64,000 nt of DNA, taken from the NCBI GenBank assembly GCA_035700865.1, contig DASSOH010000024.1, positions 18,201-82,200 on the forward strand, in the 5' to 3' direction. The notes beneath the pieces are model-generated. The model did not search any database. It had not been told where the DNA came from and was given only the letters and a program-made list of their open reading frames with translations. The DNA comes from Candidatus Limnocylindria bacterium. Lineage in GTDB: Bacteria > Chloroflexota > Limnocylindria > QHBO01. The position numbers were made by a program, and so were the translations under genes. Below are positions 49,650 to 64,000 of the stretch, piece by piece. How positions within the stretch are numbered: the first letter of the stretch is position 1; each line of letters starts with the position of its first letter.

Positions 49650-49679
49650 TTGGCGGTGACCGAGCGCATCGGCTATACT
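49650..49679 (+). promoter_or_regulatory. candidate promoter of nusA-ylxR-infB operon (TTGGCG-18-TATACT)
   Basis: -35/-10 pair 124 nt upstream of the nusA ATG. Confidence 0.4.
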
Positions 49680-49732
49680 CCGCATCGGTTCTGCCGGCCA
49701 ATGCGAACCACAAATATTGAACCTAGTGCCAG

Positions 49733-49768
49733 GACGTGGGTCGGTTCGCCATCCCACGTCTTTGTTTT
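49733..49768 (+). terminator. intrinsic terminator/attenuator in nusA leader
   Basis: gacgtggg-(12-nt loop)-cccacgtc followed by TTTGTTTT, the only clean U-tract terminator in the window. 34 nt upstream of the nusA start codon. Confidence 0.55.
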
Positions 49769-49802
49769 CGTCCGGAACCGGGTAGGCGAGCGAGGAGCGG
49801 CC

Positions 49803-50930
49803 ATGAATCGAGACTTCATCGGAGCATTGCTCCAGCTGAACGCCGAGAAGGGTGTGCCGCAGGAAATCCTGATCAGGACCCTCGAGCAGGCCATCGAATC
49901 CGCGTATCGTCGCAACGCCGATGCGCCCGAGAACGTGGTCGTGACGGTCAACCCCGAGTCGGGGGAGATCACCGTGGCGCGCGAGTACGAGGTGGTCGCC
50001 GGGGAGCAGGAGATCGAGGACCCCGAGCTCCAGATGACGGCCGCCGCCGCACAGAAGATCGATCCCACCACCGGCGTGGGCGGCAAGGTGCGCGTGCCGG
50101 AGAACGTGACGCAGGCCCAGCTGGGCCGCATTGCGGCGCAGACGGCGGGGCAGGTCTACCGCCAGCGGCTGCGCGAGGCGCAGCGCGACGTGATCTTCCA
50201 GCAGTACGCCGCCCGCGAGGGCGAGATCATGACCGGGAACGTGCAGCGCACCACCGACTCGGCCGTCGTGCTCGACATGGGCAAGGACGTCGAGGCGGTG
50301 CTGGCCGTGACCGAACAGCTGCCGAACGAGACATATCGCATCGGGCAGCACCTCAAGGTCTACGTGATGGAGGTGCGGCGCACGACGCGCGGCCCGGTCA
50401 TCGTCGCCAGCCGCACGCACCGGGGCTTCCTCCGCCGCCTGATGGAGATGGAGATCCCCGAGATCTACAACGGCACCGTGGTGATCCGGGGGATCGCCCG
50501 CGAGGCTGGCAGCCGCTCCAAGGTGGCGGTCGAGTCCCGTCAGCCCGGCGTCGACGCCAAGGGCGCGGCGGTCGGGCAGCGCGGGGCGCGGATCCAGGCC
50601 ATCGTCGCCGAGCTCAACGGCGAGAAGGTCGACATCGTGCTGTGGGACGAGGATCCGGGGCGCTTCGTCGCCGAGGCGCTGAGCCCCGCCGAGGTGCTCA
50701 GCGTGCGGATCGACGAGGAGCACAAGATCGCCAACGTCATCGTGCCCGAGCGTCAGCTCAGCCTGGCCATCGGCAAGGAGGGGCAGAATGCCCGCCTGGC
50801 CGCGAAGCTGACCGGCTGGCGCATCGACATCCGCTCGGAGGCGGGCGTCGCCACCGCGGCCGCCGGCAGCGGCGAGCATGGTGCCGAGGCCGGCGCCGAG
50901 GCGCCGGACGATGCCGAAGCGACGACCTGA
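49803..50930 (+). CDS. nusA: transcription termination/antitermination factor NusA
   Basis: [21 protein letters not shown]..., S1 and two KH domains ([22 protein letters not shown]). No rimP is present upstream. Confidence 0.92.
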
Positions 50931-51183
50931 TCACGTCCCGACCCGCACCTGCGCGGTGTGCCGGACCTCGCGCCCGAAGCGCGAGATGGACCGGCTGGTT
51001 CGCGGGGCGGACGGGCTCATCCACCTCGATCCGACCGGGAAGCTGGCGGGCCGGGGCACATACATCTGTCATGAACCGGCCTGCCGGGACCCGCGGCGCG
51101 CCGCCGGGGCCGTCAGGCGGGCACTCGACGCGGATCTCGCGCCGGGAACGTTCGAAGTCGAGGTGAAGCATGCCGCCGAATAG
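50911..51183 (+). CDS. ylxR: YlxR/DUF448 family RNA-binding protein
   Basis: RTCAVCR...GRGTYIC...AC pattern. Overlaps the nusA 3' end and the infB 5' end. Confidence 0.8.
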
Positions 51184-53071
51184 ATACCGACCGCGCCGAG
51201 GGCCACGTCCGCAGCGCAAGCGCAGCGGACCACGCCCGGGTGGCGTGCTCACCGAGACGGCCCCGCAGCGCCCGTCCGGCCCGGTCGAGCTGCCCAATCC
51301 CGTCGTGGTCAAGGACCTCTCGGAGGCGCTGGGCGTCAGCAACGCCGACATCATCAACGTCCTGATCCGCAACGGGATCTTCGCCACCGTCAACCAGTCC
51401 ATCGACTTCGACACCGCGTCGCTGGTCGCCGGCGAGCTCGGGATGGAGACCGTCGAGCGCGGCGCCGCCGAGCGTGCCGCCGCCGAGGAGGCGCGCGAGC
51501 AAGAGCTGGTGAAGCCCGGTGCCGAGTCCGCCGACGCCCGTCCCAGCCTGTGGAGCGAGGATGATCCCTCCAAGCTCACGACGCGCGCGCCGATCGTGAC
51601 CGTCATGGGCCACGTCGACCACGGCAAGACCAGCCTCCTGGACGCGGTCCGCGAGACCAAGGTCGCGGCGGGGGAGTCCGGCGGCATCACCCAGCACATC
51701 GGTGCGAGCGAGGTCACCCACAACGGACGCCGCATCGTCTTCCTGGACACGCCGGGCCACGAGGCCTTCAGCGCCATGCGCGCGCGTGGCGCCCAGGTCA
51801 CCGACATCGCGATCATCGTGGTGGCGGCCGATGACGGCGTGATGCCGCAGACCAAGGAAGCCATCGACCACGTGCGCGCGGCGCGCGTGCCGATGATCGT
51901 GGCGATCAACAAGATCGACAAGCCGGACGCGAACCCGGACCGGGTGAAGCAGGAGCTGGCCGACAACAACGTGCTCATCGAGGAGTACGGCGGCGACGTC
52001 ATCTCCGTTCCGGTGAGCGCGAAGCAGCGCACCGGCATCGACGAGCTGATGGAGATGGTGCTGCTGGTCGCCGATCTGCAGGACCTCAAGGCCAACCCCG
52101 ACCGCGACGCGATCGGCACGATCGTGGAGTCGAAGGTCGACAAGGGCCGCGGCAACGTGGCCACGGTCCTGGTCCAGACCGGAACGCTCAAGGTCGGCCA
52201 GGTCGTCACCGTCGGCAAGACGTGGGGACGCGTCCGAGCCCTGAACACCGCCGCCGGCAAGCGCGTGAAGCAGGCGGAGCCGGCCACGGCGGTCGAGATC
52301 ATCGGCCTCCAGGGCTTGCCCGAGGCCGGCGACCACCTGCTGGTCGTGGCCGACGAGAAGGCGGCGCGCGACGCGGCCGAGGCCGCCGAGCGTGCGGCGG
52401 CCGGCGGCGAGGGCCGCCAGGTCAGCAGCCTCGAGGAGATCAGCGCGGCCATCCAGGCCAGCGAGACGGCCGAGCTGCGTGTCGTCCTCAAGACCGACGT
52501 CCAGGGGTCGCTGGGTGCCATCCGCGGCGCCCTGGAGCGGCTGAACACGACCGAGGTGCGGATCAACATCCTGCGCGAGGGCGCGGGCGACATCAACGAG
52601 TCCGACGTGAACCTCGCCTCGGCCTCGGACGCGGTGATCATCGGCTTCAACACGCGGCTGGACGCCGGAGCGCAGCGTGCCGTGGAGGCCACGGGCGTGG
52701 ACGTGCGCGTGTACGACGTCATCTACAAGCTGACCGATGACATGGCCCAGGCCCTCAAGGGCATGCTCGCGCCGAAGATGGTCGAGCAGGTCGAGGGGCA
52801 CGCGGAGGTCCGGATGGTGATCAAGGCCGGCAAGGCCGGGAACATCGCCGGCTCCTACGTCACGGACGGCCGCATCGTGCGTGGCGGGCAGGCGCGGCTC
52901 TACCGCGGCAGCACCCTGCTGGCCGATACGCGCATCACCTCGCTCAAGCGCTTCAAGGACGACGTCCGCGAGGTGCAGACCGGGTACGAGTGTGGCATCG
53001 GCCTCGACTACGAGGACATCGCCGAGGGCGACGTCGTCGAGTGCTACCAGATGGTGGCCGAGCAGGCCTGA
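51170..53071 (+). CDS. infB: translation initiation factor IF-2
   Basis: G domain ([27 protein letters not shown]), C-terminal beta-barrels. 633 aa. Confidence 0.93.
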
Positions 53072-53078
53072 GCGACCG

Positions 53079-53435
53079 ATGAGCCAGCGCACCGACCGGC
53101 TCGACAGCCAGATCCGGGCGGAGCTCATGCAGCTCCTCCAGCGCGAGATGAAGGACCCTCGAGTCGGGTTCGCCACCATCACGCGCGTGGAGACCGCCCG
53201 CGATCTCGGCTCGGCTCGGGTATGGGTCAGCGTCATGGGGACGCCGGAGGAGAAGGCGGCCACCATCCAGGCCCTGACCGATGCCGCCCCATGGATGCGC
53301 CGGCAGCTGGGCCAGCGCATCACGGTGCGACAGGTGCCGCAGCTGGTGATCCGCCTCGACGACTCGATCGAGGCCGGCGACCGCGTGCTGAAGCTGCTCA
53401 ACGAGCTCGAGGAGGAGCGCGCCGGTGAGCCGTGA
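53079..53435 (+). CDS. rbfA: ribosome-binding factor A
   Basis: RLDSQIRAELMQLLQREMKDPRVGFATITRVE...RQVPQLVI. Confidence 0.9.
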   Translation: MSQRTDRLDSQIRAELMQLLQREMKDPRVGFATITRVETARDLGSARVWVSVMGTPEEKAATIQALTDAAPWMRRQLGQRITVRQVPQLVIRLDDSIEAGDRVLKLLNELEEERAGEP

Positions 53436-54408
53436 CGCGGTGCTCGACGCGTTGCGCTCGGCGACCCGCATCACGACCATCTGCCACGAGAATCCCGATG
53501 CCGACTCGCTCGGGGCCGCCATCGCCCTGCGCATCGCCGCCGAGCGGATGGGGAAGCAGGCCGAAGTGGTCGCTGCCGACGGGGTGCCGCCGTTCCTGGC
53601 CGGGCTGCCCCGGGCCGGCGAGGTCCGGCGCCTGCCTGAGCTGGAACCCGACCTGGCGGTGATGCTCGACGGTCCGCTGTCACGGTCCGGCGCGGTCGTC
53701 ACCGAGGCCGCGGACTGGCTCGCGGCGGCACGCGTGGTGAACATCGACCACCACGTGTCGAACGACGGTGCGGAGGTGCCGCTGGCCTACGTCGACGCCG
53801 ATGCGGCCGCGACGTGCGAGATCGTGGCGCTCATGATCCCGGACCTCGGCGTGGACGTCGACGCGGAGATCGCCACCGCACTGGCCGCGGGGATCGTGCA
53901 GGACACCCACACCTTCTCGCACCCCAACGCCACGCCGCGCACGCTGCGGGTCATGGCCGACCTCGTCGCCGCCGGGGCGCCGCTCTCGCAGCTCCACAAG
54001 GCGATCTACGCGGACAAGCCGTTCAGCACCATGGCGCTGTGGGGCCGAATGCTGGCCGGCATCGGGCAGCGCCGCGACGGCAGGATCGTGCATGCCGCCC
54101 AGACGCTCGAGATGCTGCGCGAGACGGGTGCCGATCCCACCGCCACCGAGGGATTCGTGGACCTGCTGGCGAGCACCAGGACCGGGGAGATCACCGTCCT
54201 CTTCAAGGAAGCGGCCGCCGACCGCGTTCGCGCCAGCGTGCGGACCGCGGCGAGCGCGGATGCCGTCGCGATCACCACCGCCTTCGGCGGGGGTGGCCAT
54301 GCGCGGGCTGCCGGCTGCACGCTCGACGTGCCGCTGCCCGAGGCGCGGGATCGACTCCTGGACGAGTGCGAGCGCGAGCTGGACCGCGCCGATGCTCGGG
54401 GTCGTTAA
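53425..54408 (+). CDS. nrnA: DHH/DHHA1 phosphoesterase NrnA (nanoRNase/pAp phosphatase)
   Basis: HENPDADSLGAA, NIDHHVSN (DHH), C-terminal GGGH (DHHA1). Confidence 0.85.
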   Translation: MSRDAVLDALRSATRITTICHENPDADSLGAAIALRIAAERMGKQAEVVAADGVPPFLAGLPRAGEVRRLPELEPDLAVMLDGPLSRSGAVVTEAADWLAAARVVNIDHHVSNDGAEVPLAYVDADAAATCEIVALMIPDLGVDVDAEIATALAAGIVQDTHTFSHPNATPRTLRVMADLVAAGAPLSQLHKAIYADKPFSTMALWGRMLAGIGQRRDGRIVHAAQTLEMLRETGADPTATEGFVDLLASTRTGEITVLFKEAAADRVRASVRTAASADAVAITTAFGGGGHARAAGCTLDVPLPEARDRLLDECERELDRADARGR

Positions 54409-55279
54409 CCTCGACAAGCCGGTCGGGCCCACCAGCCATGACATGGTCGGGCTCCTGCGGCGGCTGACCGGGACGCGACGCATCGGCCATGCCGGCACGC
54501 TCGACCCGCTCGCATCGGGCGTGCTGCCCATCCTGGTCGGGGCCGCCACGCGGTTCAGCGAGGAGCTGACGGGCGGCTCGAAGCGCTACGACGCGACGAT
54601 CCGCCTGGGCGCTCGTTCGGCGACCGATGATGCCCAGGGCCCCGTCGAGCCCACCGGTGCGGCGATCCCCGACGACGACGCGATCCGCGCGGCGGTGGCG
54701 GGCTTCGTCGGCACCTTCGAGCAGCGGCCGCCGGCCTTCAGCGCCCGGAAGCAGGGCGGGCGGACCGCGCACCGCGCCGCGCGGGCGGGGGAGCCGCTCG
54801 ACCTCCCATCGCGGACGGTGAGCATCGAGTCCATCGAGGTGCGATCCATCCAGCGCGCGGACGGCATGGCCGACGTGCGCGTCGATCTGCGCTGCGGGGC
54901 CGGCACCTACGTGCGTTCCGTCGCCCGCGACGTCGGGGATCGGCTCGGCTGCGGCGGGCACCTGGCTGCCCTGCGCCGAACGGAGGCGGCCGGCCTGCGC
55001 GTCGACGACGCCGTCACGCCCACGCAGCTGGAGGCGCTGGCGCAGGCCGGACGCCTCGCCAGTGCCGTCATGCCCGTCGGCGAGTTCCTGCACATGCCCC
55101 GCGCGAGCCTGGACGCCGTCGAGGCGGCGCGATTCCGCAACGGTTCCACCGTCGACGTCGACCGCGGCCTGGCCGGGCGGATCTCGGCCTGGAGCGAGGG
55201 GCGGCTGCTGGGCATCGGATCCGCCGAGGCGGGACGGCTGCGGCCGGTGAAGGTCCTGCCGACCGAGGTCGAGGCGTGA
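54392..55279 (+). CDS. truB: tRNA pseudouridine55 synthase
   Basis: GVVNLDKPVGPTSHD, GHAGTLDPLASGVL, PUA-like C-terminus. Confidence 0.9.
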   Translation: MLGVVNLDKPVGPTSHDMVGLLRRLTGTRRIGHAGTLDPLASGVLPILVGAATRFSEELTGGSKRYDATIRLGARSATDDAQGPVEPTGAAIPDDDAIRAAVAGFVGTFEQRPPAFSARKQGGRTAHRAARAGEPLDLPSRTVSIESIEVRSIQRADGMADVRVDLRCGAGTYVRSVARDVGDRLGCGGHLAALRRTEAAGLRVDDAVTPTQLEALAQAGRLASAVMPVGEFLHMPRASLDAVEAARFRNGSTVDVDRGLAGRISAWSEGRLLGIGSAEAGRLRPVKVLPTEVEA

Positions 55280-56214
55280 GGCCACCGTTCGGCATCGAGC
55301 GACTTCCGGCGATCGGTCCGGCCGTGATCACGCTGGGGGTGTTCGACGGGGTGCATCGCGGGCATCGGGCCATCCTGGAGGCGACGACCACCGCGGCGCG
55401 CGAGCGGCAGGCGGCGTCGGTGGCGCTCGTCTTCACGCCGCACCCGGACGAGGTGCTGCGGCCCGGGACGACCGTCCCGCGCCTCCTGCCCCCGGAGCGC
55501 AGCCTGGAGGCGATCGAGGCGGTGGGCATCGGCCACGCCATCCCGGTCCGCTTCGACGACGAGCTGCGGTCCCTGGCGCCGGAGGCGTTCCTGGCGGCCC
55601 TGGCGCCCGCGATCGAGCTGCGCGGCATCGTCATGACACCGGGCAGCGCCTTCGGCCGCGGTCGCGCCGGCACGCTGGCGCGCGTCCGCGAGATCGGCGA
55701 CGGCGCCGGCTTCGACGCCATCGCCGTCGATCCGCTGCTGATCGACGATGCGCCGGTGTCGTCGTCCCGCATCCGTGACGCGCTCGCCGCCGGCGACCTC
55801 GACGCGGCGCGCCGGCTCCTGGGACGGGCGCCGGTGCTGGAGGGCACGGTCATCCACGGCGATCGGCGCGGTCGCGAGCTCGGCTTCCCGACCGCGAACC
55901 TCGGCTTCGACTACCCGCCTGCGCTGCCGGCGCTCGGCATCTACCTCGGACGGGTGAGCTGCCCGGCCCGCGAGGTGGGCCCCGATCACCCCGCGCTGGT
56001 CAGCATCGGCGTGCGGCCGACCTTCCACGAGCATGGTCTGCTGCTGGTCGAGGTCTACCTGCTCGACTGGGACGGCGACCTGTACGAGACGACCCTGGAG
56101 GTCGCGCTCGAGGCGCGGTTGCGCGACGAGCGGCGCTTCACCTCGGTCGACGAGCTGGTGGCCCAGATGCGCGCGGATGAGGCGCATGCGCGGCGGCTGC
56201 TGGCCGAGGGCTGA
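55276..56214 (+). CDS. ribF: bifunctional riboflavin kinase/FMN adenylyltransferase
   Basis: [19 protein letters not shown]-terminal kinase domain (GFPTANL, PTF). Confidence 0.88.
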
Positions 56215-56247
56215 CCGGGCACGCCGATGGCGAGAGCGGGCCTCCTC

Positions 56248-56256
56248 TGGTAGACT
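56248..56256 (+). promoter_or_regulatory. extended -10 (TGGTAGACT) upstream of rpsO
   Basis: 35 nt upstream of the rpsO GTG. Confidence 0.3.
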
Positions 56257-56290
56257 CGCCAGGCTAACGGAAACGAATGTGGAGGAATAC

Positions 56291-56560
56291 GTGCCGCTCG
56301 CCAAGGACGCGAAGAGCGCAATCGTCGAGGAATATGCCACGCACGAGGGCGACACTGGATCACCCGAGGTGCAGATTGCGCTTCTCACCGAGCGGATCAA
56401 GTCGCTGACGGAGCACCTGCGCAGCTTCCCCAAGGACAACCACTCGCGCCGCGGGCTGCTCAAGCTCGTCGGGCAGCGCCGACGGCTGCTGGCCTACCTG
56501 GTCCGCAACGACGTGGATCGGTACCGCGCCGTCATCAGCAGCTTGGGGCTGCGCCGCTAA
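56291..56560 (+). CDS. rpsO: 30S ribosomal protein S15
   Basis: GTG behind [30 protein letters not shown]...[20 protein letters not shown]. Confidence 0.92.
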
Positions 56561-56574
56561 CCCCGCTCGCGATC

Positions 56575-56616
56575 GACCCAGGGCCCCGAGCCAGTCGGAT
56601 TTGGGGGACCTGGGTC
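56575..56616 (+). promoter_or_regulatory. long interrupted stem-loop in rpsO-pnp intergenic region (candidate pnp leader processing/autoregulatory hairpin)
   Basis: gacccagg(g)cccc...(15-nt loop)...gggg(a)cctgggtc, about 12 bp with one bulge. In E. coli the rpsO-pnp intergenic region holds an RNase III-cleaved hairpin controlling pnp. No U-tract. Confidence 0.35.
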
Positions 56617-56731
56617 TCGCGCATCTGCTCACAACCCCCGAGCGGCATCCGAGGAACCACCTGACGCGGCGCTCCGACCCGGAGCGCGCCAGTTGGGCTC
56701 GCGTGCCGCGACAAGCACACTGGAGGATTCA

Positions 56732-59341
56732 GTGGCCATCAAGCACGAGGCCGAGATCGGCGGCCAGGTCTTCAGCATGGAGGCCGGCAAGCTCGCCGAG
56801 CAGGCCGACGGCGCGGTGATCGTCCGCTACGGCGACACCGTCGTCCTGGCGACCGCGGTCGCCAGCAAGGAGCCCCGCGAGGGCGCCGACTTCTTCCCGC
56901 TCACCGTCGACTACGAGGAGCGCATGTACGCCGCCGGCAAGATTCCGGGCGGCTTCATCAAGCGCGAGTCGCGCCCATCGGAGGCGGCCATCCTGGCCAT
57001 GCGCCTCACCGACCGGCCGATCCGTCCGCTCTTCCCGAAGGGCTACTTCAACGACGTCCAGATCGTCCTGACCGTCCTCTCCACCGACATGGAGAACGAT
57101 CCGGACATCCTGGCGCTGAACGGCGCCTCCGCGGCGCTGTCCATCAGCCACATCCCGTTCATGGGCCCGGTCGGCGCGGTCCGCGTCGGGCGCCTGAACG
57201 GCGAGTTCGTCACCAACCCGACCAACACCCAGCTCGACGAGAGCGATCTCGACCTCGTCGTCGCCGGCACCCGCGAGGCGGTGATGATGGTCGAGGCCGG
57301 CGCCAAGATCCTGCCGGAATCGGTCATGGCCGATGCCATCGCCTTCGGCCACAGCGAGCTGCAGAAGTCCATCGACCTGCAGGAGAAGCTGGTCGCCAGC
57401 GCCGGCACCCCCAAGAAGATGCCGTTCGTCGGACCCAAGGCGCAGTCCATCGTCAAGCTGGGCAAGCGCCTCGCGGCCGGCCAGAGCGAGTTCGTGGTCG
57501 TCGACCTCGAGACGACGGCCATGAAGCCGGAGCACGGCTACATCGTCGACGTCGCCGCGCTGCGCGTGCGAGACGGCAAGGTGGTGGATCGCTTCGAGTC
57601 GCTGGTCAACCCCGGCCGCCCGATCGTCGGCCACCAGGTGCACGGCATCACGACCGACGACGTGGCCAACGCGCCGATCGCCTCGGACGTGCTGAGCCGC
57701 CTGGTCGAATGGATCGGCGACGCGCCGGTCGTGGCGCACAACATCGCCTTCGACATGCCGTTCATCCTTCGCCACCTGCCTCCCGAGGCGAAGTGGGAGC
57801 CGAAGGAGCTGTACGACACGCTGGAGCTCGGCTACCAGCTGTACCCGGACGCCGGCGTCTGGAAGCTCGGCGACCTGGTGCGCTTCGTCTTCGGTCGCGA
57901 CCACGCCGCGGCTCATCGGGCCATGCCCGACGCCGAGGCCACGGCCGAGCTGTTCATCCACTTCACGCAGGGGCTGGCGGAGCGTCTCGACGCCATCCGC
58001 GAGGACATCGCCGCCGAGATCCGTCGTGCGCGCGAGGACTACAGCCGCTCCGAGCAGGGGCAGCACCTCGAGGACATCCGCCGGCGCCACGGCATCGGCT
58101 CCGCGCTCATGGACGTGATGACCAAGTCGACCGTCCGCGAGCTCGTGCTGACCGAGGACATCCGCATCGACGGGCGCGACACCAAGACCATCCGGCCCAT
58201 CAGCGTCGAGGTCGGGGTGCTGCCGCGGACCCACGGCTCCGCCATCTTCACCCGCGGGCAGACCCAGGCCCTCTCGATCGCCACGCTCGGGCCGTCCAGC
58301 GCCGTCCAGCGCATGGACACCATCAGCCCGGAGACCGAGAAGCGGTACCTGCACCACTACAACATGCCGCCCTACTCGGTGGGCGAGGCGCGCTTCATGC
58401 GCGGCCCCGGCCGCCGCGAGATCGGTCATGGCGCGCTGGCCGAGCGAGCGCTGCTGCCGGTGCTGCCGACCCAGGACGAGTTCCCGTACGTCATCCGCGT
58501 GGTGAGCGAGGTGGTGAGCTCGAACGGTTCGACCTCCATGGCCTCGACCTGCGGCTCCTCCCTGGCCCTGATGGACGCCGGCGTGCCGATCAAGGCGCCG
58601 GTGGGTGGTGCGGCCATGGGCCTGATCACCGACCCGGAGACCGGCCGGTACGCCGTCCTGACCGACATCAACGGCAAGGAGGATGCGTACGGCGACATGG
58701 ACTTCAAGGTGACCGGCACGGCCGAGGGCGTGACGGCGCTGCAGATGGACATCAAGGTCGCCGGCATCACCACCGAGATCATGCGTGACGCGCTGGAGCA
58801 GGCGCGCGTGGCCCGGCTCTTCATCCTGGAGAAGATGACCAACGTCATCAGCGCCAGCCGCGAGGAGCTCAGCCCGTTCGCCCCGCGCATCACGACCATC
58901 AAGATCCCCGTGGACAAGATCCGCGACGTCATCGGCTCGGGCGGCAAGGTCATCCGCCAGATCACGGCCGAGACGGGCACCGAGATCAACATCGAGGACG
59001 ACGGCACGATCCAGATCGCCGCGACCAGCGGCGAGGCCGCCCAGAAGGCGATCAAGTGGATCGAGGGCCTGACCAAGGACGTCGAGGTCGGCAAGGAGTA
59101 CCTCGGCAAGGTGACCCGGATCATGAACTTCGGGGCCTTCGTCGAGATCCTGCCCGGCAAGGAGGGCCTGGTGCACATCAGCCAGCTCGCCGACTACCGG
59201 GTGCCGCGGGTCGAGGACGTGGTCAGCATCGGCGACGAGCTGATGGTCGTCGTGACCGAGATCGACCGCATGGGCCGCGTCAACCTGAGCCGCCGTGCGG
59301 CGATGGAGCGGCACATGGCGAAGTCGGGCTCCAACAGCTGA
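56732..59341 (+). CDS. pnp: polynucleotide phosphorylase carrying an inserted DnaQ-like DEDDh 3'-5' exonuclease domain
   Basis: GTG behind TGGAGGA. Canonical PH1 ([26 protein letters not shown]), PH2 (MPPYSVGE...[18 protein letters not shown]), KH and S1 domains. About 185 extra residues sit in the helical domain (nt 57494-58050): [10 protein letters not shown] (Exo I), [12 protein letters not shown] (Exo II), [10 protein letters not shown] (Exo III). 869 aa versus about 700 typical. Confidence 0.9.
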
Positions 59342-59360
59342 CGGGCCCCGTCCGCACGCG

Positions 59361-60050
59361 ATGGAGGGGGCGGGCGGATCGACCGGAGGCGCGGCGGCGC
59401 TGGCGCAGGTCGCGGCTGAAGTCCGCGCCTGCGCGCGCTGCCCGCTCGCCGCGCGCCGCACTCGCGCCGTCCCGGGCGAAGGGAACGTCCTGAGCGACGT
59501 GCTCCTGGTGGGGGAGGGCCCCGGCGCGCGGGAGGATGCCACCGGCCGTCCGTTCGTGGGTCCGGCCGGCCAGCTGCTCACCGAGCTGCTGCGCAGCATC
59601 GGCTGGGAGCGGGAGGACGTGTTCATCACGAACGTGGTGAAGTGCCGCCCGCCCGGCAACCGCGACCCGGAGCCCCACGAGGTGGCCGCGTGCGGCAGCT
59701 ATCTCGATCGACAGGAGCGGGCGCTCGATCCGGCCGTCGTCGTGACGCTGGGTCGACACTCGCTCCAGCGCTACCTGCCCGGGTCGCGCATCGGCGCGAT
59801 CCACGGCCGGCTGCGTCGCTCGCCCTCGGGCCAGCACATCTTCCCGATGTACCATCCAGCTGCGGCGCTGCACCAGGCCTCGTTGCGCGAAACGCTCTTC
59901 CGGGACGTGCACGAGCTGCCCGCAGCGTTGCTGGTCGCCCGCGAGGCGCTCGATCGTGAGCGCATCCAGGCGGCTGGGGCCGAGGAGGCGGTGGCGCCGG
60001 GACCACCGGAGCCGTCGGCCGACGACGCCCAACAGATGACACTCTTCTAG
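59361..60050 (+). CDS. uracil-DNA glycosylase, family 4 (4Fe-4S)
   Basis: CARCPLAARRT...GEGPGAREDATGRPFVGPAGQLL...FITNVVKCRPPGNRDP...C. Confidence 0.85.
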   Translation: MEGAGGSTGGAAALAQVAAEVRACARCPLAARRTRAVPGEGNVLSDVLLVGEGPGAREDATGRPFVGPAGQLLTELLRSIGWEREDVFITNVVKCRPPGNRDPEPHEVAACGSYLDRQERALDPAVVVTLGRHSLQRYLPGSRIGAIHGRLRRSPSGQHIFPMYHPAAALHQASLRETLFRDVHELPAALLVAREALDRERIQAAGAEEAVAPGPPEPSADDAQQMTLF

Positions 60051-60058
60051 GAGCTTCC

Positions 60059-61723
60059 ATGCCCGAATCCCTGCGCATCATCCCGCTCGGCGGGGTGGGC
60101 GAGGTCGGCAAGAACATCACCGTGGTCGAGGCCGCCGGCGAGATCCTCGTCGTCGACTGCGGCCTCGCCTTCCCCGAGCCCGAGATGCTCGGCATCGACC
60201 TCGTGATCCCCGACGTGACCTACCTCGAGGAGCACCGGGACCGCGTGCGGGGCATCATCCTCACGCACGGCCACGAGGACCACACCGGTGCGCTGCCGTA
60301 CGTCCTGCCGAAGATCCCCGGCACGCCGATCTACGCCACCAAGCTGACCGAGGGCCTGGTGCAGGGCAAGCTTAAGGAGCACAAGCTGCTCGACAGCACC
60401 CCCCTGCACGTCGTGGAGCCGGGACGCGAGTTCGCGGTCGGCCCGTTCCGGATCACGCCGTTCCGCGTCAACCACTCCATCCCCGACGGCGTCGGCTACG
60501 CCATCGACACGCCGCTGGGCACGGTCGTCCACACCGGCGACTTCAAGTTCGATCACACGCCGCCCGACGGCAAGCGCGCGGACCTCGGCCTGATCGCCGA
60601 GATCGGCAACCGTGGCGTCGAGTTCCTGCTGTCCGACTCCACGCGAGCCGAGAAGGAGGGGTACACCCTCTCGGAGGCGACGGTGGGGGAGAGCCTGCAT
60701 CGGCTGGTCGGCGAGGCGCCGGGCCGGGTCATCGTGGCGACCTTCGCCAGCAACATCGGACGCGTGCAGCAGGTGCTCGACGCCGCCGCCGCGCACGGCC
60801 GCCGGATGGTGGCGCTGGGCCGGAGCATGGAGCAGAACATCGCCATCGCGCTGGAGCGCGGCTACCTCGAGGACCGCGACGGCACGCTGGCCAAGAAGGA
60901 CCAGCTCCAGCGGCTGGACCACGCGCAGCTGGTGGTGATGACCACCGGGTCGCAGGGCGAGCCGATGTCGGGCCTCACGCGGATGAGCAACCGCGACCAC
61001 CGCAACATCTCGATCGAGCCGGGCGACACGGTGATCGTCTCGGCCTCGCCGATCCCCGGCAACGAGGAGGCGGTGGCCAAGACCATCGACAACCTCTTCA
61101 AGGAAGGGGCGATGGTGCACTACGAGCCACTGGTGCACTGCCACGTCTCGGGCCACGGCTCGCGCGAGGAGCTCAAGCTGATGCTCGGGCTGGTCAAGCC
61201 GCGGCACTTCATCCCGGTCCACGGCGAGTACCGCATGCTGGTCCAGCACGGCCTGCTGGCCGAGGGTGCCGGCGTCGACGTGGACAAGATCTTCGTGCTC
61301 GAGAACGGCCAGGTCGTCGAGTTCGACGGCCAGAAGGCCCGGATGTCGGGCACGGTATCGGCCGGCGCGGTGCTGGTCGACGGCATCGCGGCCATCGACG
61401 GGATCGATGGGGTCGTCCTGCGTGACCGCCGCATGCTCGCCTCCGATGGCGTGGTGATGGTCGCGCTGACCGTCGACGCCAAGACGGGCCAGGTGCTCGG
61501 GGAGCCGGACATCGTCAGCCGCGGCTTCCTCTCCGACCCGGACGACCCGGTGCTGGGCGAAGCCCGCACGCATCTCGTCTCGGCGCTGCGGCAGCCGCGA
61601 CACGACGAGCACACGGCCGAGCCGGGGTACCTGAAGACCAAGGTGCGCGATACCCTCAGCCGCTACTTCCACCAGCGCACCAAGCGCCGGCCGATGATCC
61701 TGCCGATCGTGATGGAGGTCTGA
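60059..61723 (+). CDS. rnj: ribonuclease J (beta-CASP metallo-beta-lactamase RNase)
   Basis: LTHGHEDHTGALP (HxHxDH), beta-CASP motifs, C-terminal domain. 554 aa. Confidence 0.9.
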   Translation: MPESLRIIPLGGVGEVGKNITVVEAAGEILVVDCGLAFPEPEMLGIDLVIPDVTYLEEHRDRVRGIILTHGHEDHTGALPYVLPKIPGTPIYATKLTEGLVQGKLKEHKLLDSTPLHVVEPGREFAVGPFRITPFRVNHSIPDGVGYAIDTPLGTVVHTGDFKFDHTPPDGKRADLGLIAEIGNRGVEFLLSDSTRAEKEGYTLSEATVGESLHRLVGEAPGRVIVATFASNIGRVQQVLDAAAAHGRRMVALGRSMEQNIAIALERGYLEDRDGTLAKKDQLQRLDHAQLVVMTTGSQGEPMSGLTRMSNRDHRNISIEPGDTVIVSASPIPGNEEAVAKTIDNLFKEGAMVHYEPLVHCHVSGHGSREELKLMLGLVKPRHFIPVHGEYRMLVQHGLLAEGAGVDVDKIFVLENGQVVEFDGQKARMSGTVSAGAVLVDGIAAIDGIDGVVLRDRRMLASDGVVMVALTVDAKTGQVLGEPDIVSRGFLSDPDDPVLGEARTHLVSALRQPRHDEHTAEPGYLKTKVRDTLSRYFHQRTKRRPMILPIVMEV

Positions 61724-61729
61724 CCCGGC

Positions 61730-64000
61730 GTGGCCACCCGACGGCGCACGACAACCCGCCGCCGCACCACCCGACGCCGGCGCCAGCAGACGCCGTTCGT
61801 CGTCAGTGGCCGCTTCCTGCGCGAGGGGCTGGCGCTGGTCCTCCTCTTTCTGGCTATCATCAGCGTCATCGCGCTGTTCGCCCCGGACGCCGGCGCGATC
61901 GTCAAGCCCTGGCACGACCTGCTGACCACCATGCTGGGGTGGGGGATCGCCTTCGCCGCACCGCTGCTGGCCGGCTTCGCCGTGATGCTGTGGATGAAGA
62001 CCATGCCCGCCGAGCGCTGGATGGCGGCCACCGGCGCCGCCCTGGTGGCCCTGGCGCTGCTGGGCATGTTCCACCTGGCGGCGGGCGGAACGGCGGAGCT
62101 GGTGGGCACGCCGGAGGGCGGGGGAGCGGTGGGCTTCGCCGTGGCCGGGCTGCTGAAGGGCGCCGTCGGCGACGCCGGTGCCTGGGTGATGCTCGTGATC
62201 CTCGCCGTCGTCGGGCTGCTGCTCTACTTCAACATGACCATCGGCGACCTGGTGGCCGCCTACCTCGCCGAGCGCGACGAGCGCCGCGAGCTGGAGGAGG
62301 AGGCCGCCCGCAAGGCCGCAGGACGCCGGCGCCCGGCTGACGCCACCGGGCGCGCGGTGGAGCCCGCGCCGACCGCCGAGCCACGACCCGGACTGCTCGA
62401 CCGCATGCGGGACCGGCTGGCCGGCGGGCACGACGCCGAGGACGAGCCGCCGCTCATCGTCCGGCGCGAACGACCGGCGCCCGCCACCAACGGCCGCGTC
62501 CGTGTCGGTGGCATGCCCGTGCCGGCGCCCGTGCCGCCGGCGGCTTCGCCACCGGTCATGGCGCCATCCGACGACGACGCCGCCCCGGAGACCCGTCCCG
62601 CCGCCGCCGATGACCTCGAGCAGAGCGAAGAGGCGCGGCTGGCCGCGGCGGCCCAGGAAGAGGCAGCCGACGCCGCGCTGGAGTCCACGCAGCGCTCGTG
62701 GGACCTGCCCGGCCTCGAGCTGCTGGCCGATGCGCCCGAATCGAGCGCCGCGCAGATGGACCTCACCGCCAAGGGCCAGCGCATCCGCGAGACGCTGGCG
62801 CACTTCGGCATCGGCGTGAAGGTGGCCCGGATCCAGGAAGGGCCCGTCGTCACCCAGTACGCCCTCGAGGTCGAGCCGGGCATCAAGCTCAGCCGGATCG
62901 AGGGGCTTTCGGACAACCTGGCGCTGGCCCTCTCGGCCCGCAGCATCCGGATCGAAGCGCCCATCCCGGGCGAGCCGTACGTCGGCGTCGAGATCCCGAA
63001 CTCGGCGTTCGACCTGGTCACGCTCAAGGAGGTGCTGGCCAGCCGCAACTTCGCGGAGGCGTCGGATCGGTCGTCGCTGGCGTTCGCCCTCGGCCAGGAC
63101 GTGGCGGGACAGCCGTTCAGCGCCGACCTGTCGAAGATGCCGCACCTGCTGATCGCCGGGGCCACCGGGTCGGGCAAGAGCGTGTGCGTCAACGCCATCA
63201 TCGGCAGCTTCCTGATGAACACCACGCCGGCCGAGGTGAAGCTCATCCTCATCGACCCCAAGCGCGTCGAGCTGGCGCAGTACAAGGGCATCCCGCACCT
63301 GCTGACCGAGGTCATCGTCGAGCCGGACAAGGCGGTCAACGCGCTGAAGTGGACGGTCGGCACCATGGAGAGCCGATACGCCGAGTTCGCCGCCCGCGGC
63401 GTGCGCAACATCGCCGGCTACAACGAGGCGCTGCGCCCCGGCGAACCGCGGATGCCGTACGTCGTTGTGGTCATCGACGAGCTGGCCGACCTGATGATGA
63501 TCAGCGCGTACGAGGTCGAGGCCACCATCACCCGCATCGCGCAGCTGGCGCGCGCGACCGGCATCCACCTGGTGGTCGCCACCCAGCGCCCGAGCGTCCA
63601 GGTCATCACGGGCCTGATCAAGGCCAACATCCCGTCGCGCATCGCGTTCGCCATGACCTCGGGCGTCGACTCGCGGACCATCCTCGACACCACCGGCGCG
63701 GAGGACCTGCTCGGCCGTGGCGACATGCTGTACCAGCCCATCGACGCGCCGCGCGCCGTTCGCCTGCAGGGCGTGCTGGTCACCGATCCGGAGATCGACG
63801 CGGTGGCGCGACACTGGCGCGCCCAGGGTGGGCCGCAGTACCGGCCGGAAATCACCGCGCCCAAGCGTGACGGCAAGGCCGGGGGCCGGCCCGGGGAGGA
63901 CGAGGAAGAGGACGACGCCGATCCGCTGCTGACGCAGGCGGTGGACATCGTGCGGCGTTCGGACAAGGCCTCGGCCTCGCTGCTGCAGCGTCGCCTGCGC
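61730..64000 (+). CDS. ftsK: DNA translocase FtsK (5' portion; runs off window end)
   Basis: GTG start gives an Arg-rich N-terminus plus TM helices. Walker A GATGSGKS and FtsK gamma-proximal motifs follow. The frame is open to the window end and is absent from the ORF track because no stop codon lies in the window. Confidence 0.88.
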   Translation, partial: MATRRRTTTRRRTTRRRRQQTPFVVSGRFLREGLALVLLFLAIISVIALFAPDAGAIVKPWHDLLTTMLGWGIAFAAPLLAGFAVMLWMKTMPAERWMAATGAALVALALLGMFHLAAGGTAELVGTPEGGGAVGFAVAGLLKGAVGDAGAWVMLVILAVVGLLLYFNMTIGDLVAAYLAERDERRELEEEAARKAAGRRRPADATGRAVEPAPTAEPRPGLLDRMRDRLAGGHDAEDEPPLIVRRERPAPATNGRVRVGGMPVPAPVPPAASPPVMAPSDDDAAPETRPAAADDLEQSEEARLAAAAQEEAADAALESTQRSWDLPGLELLADAPESSAAQMDLTAKGQRIRETLAHFGIGVKVARIQEGPVVTQYALEVEPGIKLSRIEGLSDNLALALSARSIRIEAPIPGEPYVGVEIPNSAFDLVTLKEVLASRNFAEASDRSSLAFALGQDVAGQPFSADLSKMPHLLIAGATGSGKSVCVNAIIGSFLMNTTPAEVKLILIDPKRVELAQYKGIPHLLTEVIVEPDKAVNALKWTVGTMESRYAEFAARGVRNIAGYNEALRPGEPRMPYVVVVIDELADLMMISAYEVEATITRIAQLARATGIHLVVATQRPSVQVITGLIKANIPSRIAFAMTSGVDSRTILDTTGAEDLLGRGDMLYQPIDAPRAVRLQGVLVTDPEIDAVARHWRAQGGPQYRPEITAPKRDGKAGGRPGEDEEEDDADPLLTQAVDIVRRSDKASASLLQRRLR

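Follow-up and report, generated by a model that had tools for sequence, protein, structure and literature searches.

Does the pnp gene of a Candidatus Limnocylindria bacterium encode a polynucleotide phosphorylase (PNPase) with a second, hydrolytic 3'-5' exonuclease built into the same polypeptide, and if it does, on what nucleic acid would that second nuclease act? Few RNA decay enzymes have been studied as much as PNPase, and the Limnocylindria are abundant, uncultured soil and freshwater bacteria that include the genome-streamlined Candidatus Limnocylindrus. The gene lies in a stretch of 64,000 nucleotides from contig DASSOH010000024.1, which we call the window. On its plus strand, positions 56693 to 59341 form a single unbroken open reading frame (ORF) which, counted from a TTG codon at 56693 as in the ORF list, encodes 882 aa. 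The real start is likely the GTG at 56732, since the sequence GGAGG stands five bases before it and the resulting product of 869 aa has the same length as P0001, a JGI protein that is 100% identical to the window PNPase. An Rfam search of window positions 56200-60200 returned zero matches. The features of the locus are collected in Table 1.

Table 1. Features of the pnp locus, in window coordinates; residues are numbered from TTG 56693, and subtracting 13 gives the numbering from GTG 56732.
Feature	Coordinates	Strand	Basis
rpsO (ribosomal protein S15), conserved upstream neighbour of pnp	56294..56560	+	Pfam Ribosomal_S15, E 4.6e-37
Shine-Dalgarno GGAGG, 5 bases 5' of the probable GTG start	56722..56726	+	Direct sequence reading
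pnp CDS, 869 aa plus stop (open frame reaches upstream to TTG 56693)	56732..59341	+	ORF list, TIGR03591, P0001; start and stop codons checked
PH1, first RNase PH-like core, residues 28-221	56774..57355	+	Pfam RNase_PH 28-155, RNase_PH_C 158-221
Helix 1 of the PNPase helical domain, residues 250-261, directly N-terminal of the insertion	57440..57475	+	AlphaFold2 secondary structure, pLDDT >90
Nested DnaQ-type DEDDh 3'-5' exonuclease domain, residues 265-428	57485..57976	+	Pfam RNase_T match 57494-57955
Exo I DLETT, residues 271-275 (D271, E273)	57503..57517	+	D271, E273 invariant 251/251
Exo II HNIAFD, residues 349-354 (D354)	57737..57754	+	D354 invariant 251/251
Exo III HRAMPD, residues 408-413 (H408, D413); H-x4-D is the DEDDh subgroup signature	57914..57931	+	H408, D413 invariant 251/251
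Rest of the PNPase helical domain, helices 428-445, 452-466, 470-488	57974..58156	+	AlphaFold2 helices; PF03726 match
PH2, second RNase PH-like core with phosphorolytic site R574, R575, H579, S613-T614-S615, D664, D670, K672	58157..58873	+	Alignment to E. coli
KH domain, residues 734-791	58892..59065	+	Pfam KH_1, E 1.2e-11
S1 domain, residues 797-868	59081..59296	+	Pfam S1, E 1e-18

The identity of the host protein is clear from NCBIfam: the equivalog model for PNPase, TIGR03591, matches with 980.4 bits (cut-off 525) in two stretches that the insert separates, and a further PNPase model, NF008805, reaches 977 bits (cut-off 471). Pfam and alignments to PDB entries together show that the order PH1, helical domain, PH2, KH, S1 is kept, with the extra domain nested inside the helical domain; Pfam also reports a second RNase_PH match in the window protein, the coordinates of which are absent from its output. 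The order is that of the canonical PNPases of E. coli, Streptomyces antibioticus and Caulobacter crescentus (PDB 3cdi, 1e3h and 4am3), the PH cores are 53-59% identical to those of E. coli, and the metal- and phosphate-binding residues are identical to the canonical ones. Counterparts of E. coli R398, R399, H403, S437-439, D486, D492 and K494 all occur, T standing in place of S438, and these phosphorolytic-site residues are invariant across 251 aligned sequences, bar one alignment gap at K672. The conserved rpsO gene upstream marks this as the housekeeping pnp locus, the rpsO-pnp order being the same in E. coli, and the window gene is thus the housekeeping polynucleotide phosphorylase of the class Limnocylindria.

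Unlike the canonical enzymes, this PNPase has about 160 more residues, which make up a complete DEDDh domain between helices 1 and 2 of the helical domain. In a PDB sequence search, solved PNPases covered residues 20-248 and then about 432-471 to 869, and the gap between these aligned blocks gives the net size of the insertion. None of the solved PNPases among the matches carries an added catalytic domain, and the longest PNPase chain among them, at 784 residues, is too short for such an insert. The excess segment itself is recognized by the RNase_T model of Pfam (PF00929) at residues 268-421, with an E value of 4e-20 and 73.4 bits against a gathering score of 24, rising to 76.6 bits when the segment is excised. 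Directly after it, residues 430-496 correspond to positions 28-81 of the 81 in the helical-domain model PF03726, at a score below its cut-off.

We used AlphaFold2 on residues 245-495 and obtained a model with a pLDDT of 95.4 and a pTM of 0.91, in which the alpha/beta DEDDh fold (266-425) has a short helix before it (250-261) and three long helices after it (428-488). The modelled insert has the RNase H-like alpha/beta architecture that defines the DEDDh superfamily, and it is thus predicted to adopt the canonical DEDDh fold, entering the helical domain between helix 1 and helices 2-4. A model of the full-length protein had a mean pLDDT of 62, with poor PH cores and confidence for residues 250-500 only, the low values elsewhere being attributable to the shallow PNPase part of the alignment; Foldseek with this model retrieved PNPases only.

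These results bear on a sequence-only reading of the locus, which had taken the gene for a genuine PNPase, had placed an exonuclease block inside its helical linker, and had proposed a PF00929 profile search and an alignment to solved PNPases as checks. All of this holds, the insert being the part that solved PNPases leave unaligned, and the DLETT, HNIAFD and HRAMPD motifs that it listed are present exactly, with their catalytic residues intact. Its measurements need adjusting: the protein had been put at about 170 residues over canonical length, and the block directly before IRIDGRD rather than ahead of helices 2-4. Its coordinates of 57494-58050 begin exactly at the Pfam domain start and end about 25 residues beyond the exonuclease fold, within the helical domain.

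As to which kind of DEDDh exonuclease was inserted, the best NCBIfam profile is NF005906, a 563-residue model named 'DEDD exonuclease domain-containing protein' (E 1.6e-42), followed by the DinG and PolC exonuclease profiles. The DNA polymerase III epsilon subunit proper (dnaQ) was rejected, with TIGR01406 reaching 73-75 of the 222.7 bits that its cut-off requires; the broad subfamily-domain model TIGR00573 was barely passed, at 73.1-76.5 against 71.5 bits. By these scores, the insert is a member of the epsilon-like domain family and not the replicative proofreading subunit. The solved structures nearest to it by sequence are the Thermotoga PolC exonuclease (3e-19), PolC, DinG, ExoX, Cas2-DEDDh and epsilon, and RNase T and Orn gave no match at E<=1e-5 in the same PDB sequence search. 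An RNase T or oligoribonuclease class was also rejected, the closest sequence relationship of the insert being, in that search, to neither rnt nor orn. Outside the PNPases, the nearest proteins share about 40-46% identity with the insert; among them are exonucleases of a single domain and others that are joined to GIY-YIG/UvrC motifs, BRCT or the DinG helicase. On sequence grounds, we class the insert as a DEDDh domain of the DnaQ type, most closely related to enzymes that act on DNA.

Those relatives sit in quite different hosts. The PolC proofreading exonuclease domain (PDB 2p1j, 9qpc), which is about 29% identical to the insert, belongs to a replicative DNA polymerase and acts on a mismatched DNA primer end, unlike the Limnocylindria PNPase. 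The DEDDh domains of DinG (S. aureus and B. subtilis; PDB 8zef, 9ii8) and of NF005906 proteins (PRK07883) are N-terminal fusions to DNA-repair modules, whereas the Limnocylindria domain is nested within a phosphorolytic RNase.

The fusion is widespread in the class. The best 120 homologues of the window protein (86-100% identity) all combine PF00929 with PNPase domains; their sources are assemblies of NCBI, JGI, ENA and Logan, with contigs as long as 2.2 Mb, and the named ones are Candidatus Limnocylindria or Limnocylindrales. A segment spanning the junction is encoded in 20 GTDB species-representative genomes at 75-94% identity. A HMMER search with the insert also found an 864-aa PNPase from Candidatus Limnocylindrus (P0210), encoded behind rpsO, whose insert is only 40% identical to that of the window and stands at the same position; the best 120 homologues of this protein, down to 70% identity, likewise all have the insert. 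Further divergent versions (P0202, P0203, P0219 and P0235) came from the same search and share the gene string infB, rbfA, DHH/DHHA1, truB, ribF, rpsO, pnp, asd, UDG, RNase J, ftsK; the rpsO-pnp order recurs at four other loci (L030, L031, L032 and L035). In all, the intact fusion is found in >240 clusters, from independent assemblers and sequencing technologies.

Could the feature nevertheless be an artefact or a selfish element, that is, a chimeric assembly of pnp with a dnaQ-like gene, a neighbour fused by a frameshift, or an intein-like mobile insertion? At first sight, the many short 'stand-alone' RNase_T proteins in the databases, which share 70-85% identity with the insert, suggest a separate gene of that kind. 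They are fragments of the same pnp gene cut by long-read frameshifts, with PNPase flanks present and the same rpsO-pnp locus around them; BLAST against the full protein together with inspection of the loci ruled out a free paralogue. The recurrence of the intact fusion in so many independent clusters speaks against misassembly. An intein or other mobile insertion was also rejected, the window protein having no intein (Hint) or homing-endonuclease Pfam domain at E<=0.01 and the insert showing no compositional break from its host gene (GC 0.69 and GC3 0.95, with GC3 of 0.96-0.99 in the rest of the gene). Purifying selection, with dN/dS well below 1, points the same way, and we give an artefactual or selfish origin practically no credence. 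In contrast, a real and conserved architecture of a PNPase with a nested DEDDh domain is as good as certain. The sequence-only reading had judged the block to be in frame, uninterrupted, host-like in codon usage, and neither an intein nor a neighbouring gene, all of which the single ORF and its recurrence bear out; its concern about misassembly is answered by the independent assemblies, and the survey of orthologues that it suggested found the insert in every one of the best 120 homologues of the window protein and of the best 120 of P0210.

For the origin of the insert, we built a neighbour-joining (NJ) tree of 190 DEDDh domains, a tree of a short domain and without bootstrap support, in which, after rooting on a DinG-type protein, the embedded inserts all fall together in a clade of 30 that contains no free exonuclease. 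A midpoint-rooted tree had split the window clade from the Limnocylindrus clade, a split which gave way to the one clade after rooting with the DinG-type outgroup. This single clade, together with the identical insertion point, argues for one ancient acquisition of the domain, which would have been gained in the Limnocylindria ancestor and then retained.

The inserted active site has been kept throughout. D271, E273, D354, H408 and D413 are invariant in all 251 aligned full-length sequences, among which pairwise identity of the insert falls to 35% with a median of 50%. Invariant positions number 19 of the 164 in the insert, and all five catalytic residues are among them (hypergeometric chance about 1e-5). 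The adjoining motif residues T274, H317-G318, F353 and R409-A410 are fixed as well. The window gene was also compared codon by codon with 21 related loci; the window sequence belongs to every pair, so that the comparisons are not independent. The median dN/dS was 0.215 for the DEDDh insert, 0.138 for PH1, 0.132 for PH2, 0.216 for KH and 0.265 for the helical domain. To judge by these alignments, the two catalytic centres are both complete and evolve under purifying selection, and there is a good likelihood that the DEDDh site is active. The insert might instead lack catalysis and, on the distal ring face, bind nucleic acids or dock proteins, for example a helicase or RNase J. Binding alone would not need the fixed motif residues, and the invariance of the active site at such low insert identity makes a non-catalytic role very improbable.

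If the domain is active, the remaining question is its substrate. We lean modestly toward RNA as the main substrate of the DEDDh site, and the best explanation overall is, by a slight preference on the present sequence evidence, a two-chemistry 3'-5' exonuclease working on RNA. In E. coli PNPase, the helical domain is mobile and located on the side of the torus away from S1/KH; it contributes to a second pore that leads to the active site and has been proposed as a route for NDPs and phosphate (PMC2723993). From homology, the Limnocylindria PNPase presumably forms the usual trimer ring. RNA would then enter from the S1/KH face and be phosphorolysed to NDPs at the PH2 site, while three hydrolytic DEDDh modules would stand on the opposite face, beside the helical-domain side pore. 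Each module would hydrolyse free single-stranded 3' ends by a two-metal mechanism that releases NMPs, its roles, in the view we prefer, being the finishing of short limit oligonucleotides that resist PNPase and phosphate-independent 3'-end trimming, so that a single polypeptide would act as a two-chemistry 3'-5' RNA decay machine. Two observations count against this. By sequence, the nearest relatives of the insert (PolC, DinG, ExoX, epsilon and Cas2-DEDDh) are DNA-acting enzymes, the DinG of B. subtilis preferring single-stranded DNA (PMC12525004). In addition, window positions 53425-54405, on the upstream side of pnp within the conserved gene string, carry a DHH/DHHA1 (NrnA-like) gene; the cell may thus have a nanoRNase already, leaving less need for oligonucleotide clearance by the insert.

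Alternatively, the DEDDh module may act on DNA, trimming 3' ends hydrolytically for recombination, repair or R-loop removal and thereby extending the moonlighting of PNPase in DNA repair. The nearest neighbours of the insert in both sequence and structure are DNA exonucleases; its best profile is NF005906, and its nearest non-PNPase relatives include exonucleases fused to a GIY-YIG/UvrC motif, BRCT or the DinG helicase. PNPase itself digests single-stranded DNA in the 3'-5' direction and participates in the repair of double-strand breaks, in B. subtilis as well as E. coli (PMC2709576, PMC3241651, PMC5379764). A UDG-family gene is conserved shortly downstream of pnp, an adjacency that may be coincidence. 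Against a DNA substrate stand the host, a dedicated RNA-binding and RNA-degrading ring, and the placement of pnp within a conserved string of ribosome and RNA-metabolism genes (nusA, infB, truB, rpsO, pnp, rnj). Relatedness to DNA exonucleases also loses weight through the often loose sugar specificity of DnaQ-type DEDDh domains: B. subtilis DinG prefers single-stranded DNA and RNA-DNA hybrids and cuts linear single-stranded RNA only with Mn2+, and its exonuclease degrades the RNA strand of hybrids and R-loops (PMC12525004), the latter activity being itself a precedent for the R-loop removal proposed here. We regard a role on DNA as rather unlikely. The two functions suggested by the sequence-only reading, action on short or structured RNA and DNA 3'-end editing, are both compatible with the evidence from sequence.

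Returning to RNA decay by two chemistries, the eukaryotic RNA exosome offers a likeness in outline, with an RNase PH-type ring, an S1/KH cap and hydrolytic 3'-5' exonucleases (Rrp6, which is a DEDD nuclease, and Rrp44). Rrp44 lies on the exosome ring face opposite the cap, the counterpart of the helical-domain face of PNPase and so of the location of the insert. The exosome ring is catalytically dead and its nucleases, which belong to other families (DEDDy and RNB), are subunits of their own, whereas the Limnocylindria PNPase keeps the phosphorolytic site in the ring and has its nuclease covalently attached; the likeness is one of analogy and not of a homologous arrangement. It is conceivable, though doubtful, that this PNPase realizes the exosome principle in bacteria by covalent means, combining an RNase PH ring that retains phosphorolysis with a hydrolytic nuclease on the cap-distal face. 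Limit oligonucleotides, or 3' ends leaving the phosphorolytic site by way of the helical-domain pore, would then be passed to the tethered DEDDh sites. A hand-off of this kind would let degradation proceed to mononucleotides, and would make decay independent of phosphate where soil or freshwater is poor in it. Non-covalent partnerships of PNPase with a hydrolytic exonuclease of the DEDD family are described in the Caulobacter degradosome, where PNPase and RNase D share one assembly (PMC4245959), and in human mitochondria, where REXO2 follows PNPase-SUV3 by acting on the short decay products (PMC7261184).

Taken by its sequence, the Limnocylindria PNPase has an ancient, conserved and probably active nested DEDDh domain, a second nuclease of different chemistry built into PNPase and retained class-wide, Candidatus Limnocylindrus included. 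An active domain would provide a natural experiment that couples phosphorolytic and hydrolytic 3'-5' decay in one particle, a simple one-polypeptide system in which to study the reasons that exosome-type rings have for recruiting hydrolytic nucleases, and perhaps a connection of RNA decay with phosphate economy or DNA-end processing. We found no description of a PNPase-DEDD fusion in the full-text literature covered, which includes few of the subscription journals, or in a recent Limnocylindria genomics paper. This agrees with the sequence-only reading, whose author was aware of no described PNPase of this architecture, though the same architecture is already present, automatically annotated, in hundreds of public proteins from metagenome-assembled genomes. 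NCBI names these proteins PNPase, and JGI often names them 'DNA polymerase III epsilon subunit family exonuclease'; together with the stand-alone exonuclease genes made by frameshifts, the epsilon-subunit naming can mislead genomic inventories of replication proteins and RNases.

Counts taken from the 50%-identity representative library understate the PNPase-DEDDh architecture. The best match there to the insert, i.e., the DnaQ-type DEDDh exonuclease domain (Pfam RNase_T, PF00929) nested in the PNPase helical domain, was a 307-aa fragment with 68% identity. No full-length representative of the window's PNPase clade was found among the matches to the insert in this library and, as such, the protein that stands for this clade at 50% clustering may lack the insert or be a fragment.

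Frameshifts in long-read MAG assemblies (ENA ERZ250395xx) break pnp and the neighboring truB, asd, and RNase J genes into 2-4 gene calls, as seen for the proteins P0121, P0122, P0126, P0202, P0203, P0219, and P0235 and the related loci L031, L032, L034, and L035. As a result, truncated PNPases and RNase_T proteins that falsely look stand-alone have entered protein databases. Separately, non-PNPase relatives of the insert (P0204, P0205, P0207, P0208, and P0213) have multi-copy architectures, including a 1045-aa protein with three tandem RNase_T domains, a GIY-YIG domain, and a UvrB/C motif, and pairs of RNase_T domains joined to either a BRCT domain or a DinG-type helicase. These architectures show that the DEDDh exonuclease module is freely recombined.

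Gene-order comparison of window positions 49650-61720 with L031, L032, and L035 revealed a conserved RNA-metabolism gene string, which reads nusA, infB, (rbfA), DHH/DHHA1, truB, ribF, rpsO, pnp, (asd), UDG-family glycosylase, RNase J, and ftsK. The PNPase and RNase J genes are near neighbors separated by a DNA glycosylase gene. Where related loci carry ftsK, the window has a 390-aa ORF with no Pfam match at E<=1e-4, which may be a poorly conserved FtsK N-terminal part or a spurious high-GC ORF.

Features of the pnp neighborhood, in window coordinates
Feature	Coordinates	Strand	Evidence or context
DHH/DHHA1 NrnA-like phosphoesterase	53425-54405		between infB/(rbfA) and truB
rpsO-pnp intergenic leader	56558-56735	+	178 nt, RNA folding
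pnp 5' region bearing alternative starts	56693-56780	+	NCBI gene calls, E. coli alignment, GGAGG-GTG
UDG-family glycosylase	59295-60047		between pnp/(asd) and RNase J
RNase J	60059-61720		downstream of UDG-family glycosylase
390-aa ORF	62698-63867	+	downstream of RNase J

In NCBI gene calls, the proteins identical or near-identical to the window PNPase (P0004, P0006, and P0065) are 854-858 aa long, and the 854 aa of P0004 imply a start at M29 (MEAGKLAEQ..., counted from TTG 56693). This start probably lies too far downstream, since the E. coli PNPase alignment reaches upstream of M29 and translation from the GTG at 56732, which follows a GGAGG, would yield an 869-aa PNPase.

A search of window positions 56200-60200 returned no Rfam match in the rpsO-pnp leader. 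RNA folding predicted long GC-rich hairpins, with an MFE of -87.7 kcal/mol, whereas shuffled sequences gave -72.9 +/- 5.0 (z = -2.9). The predicted hairpins are reminiscent of the one in the E. coli pnp leader that serves RNase III/PNPase autoregulation.
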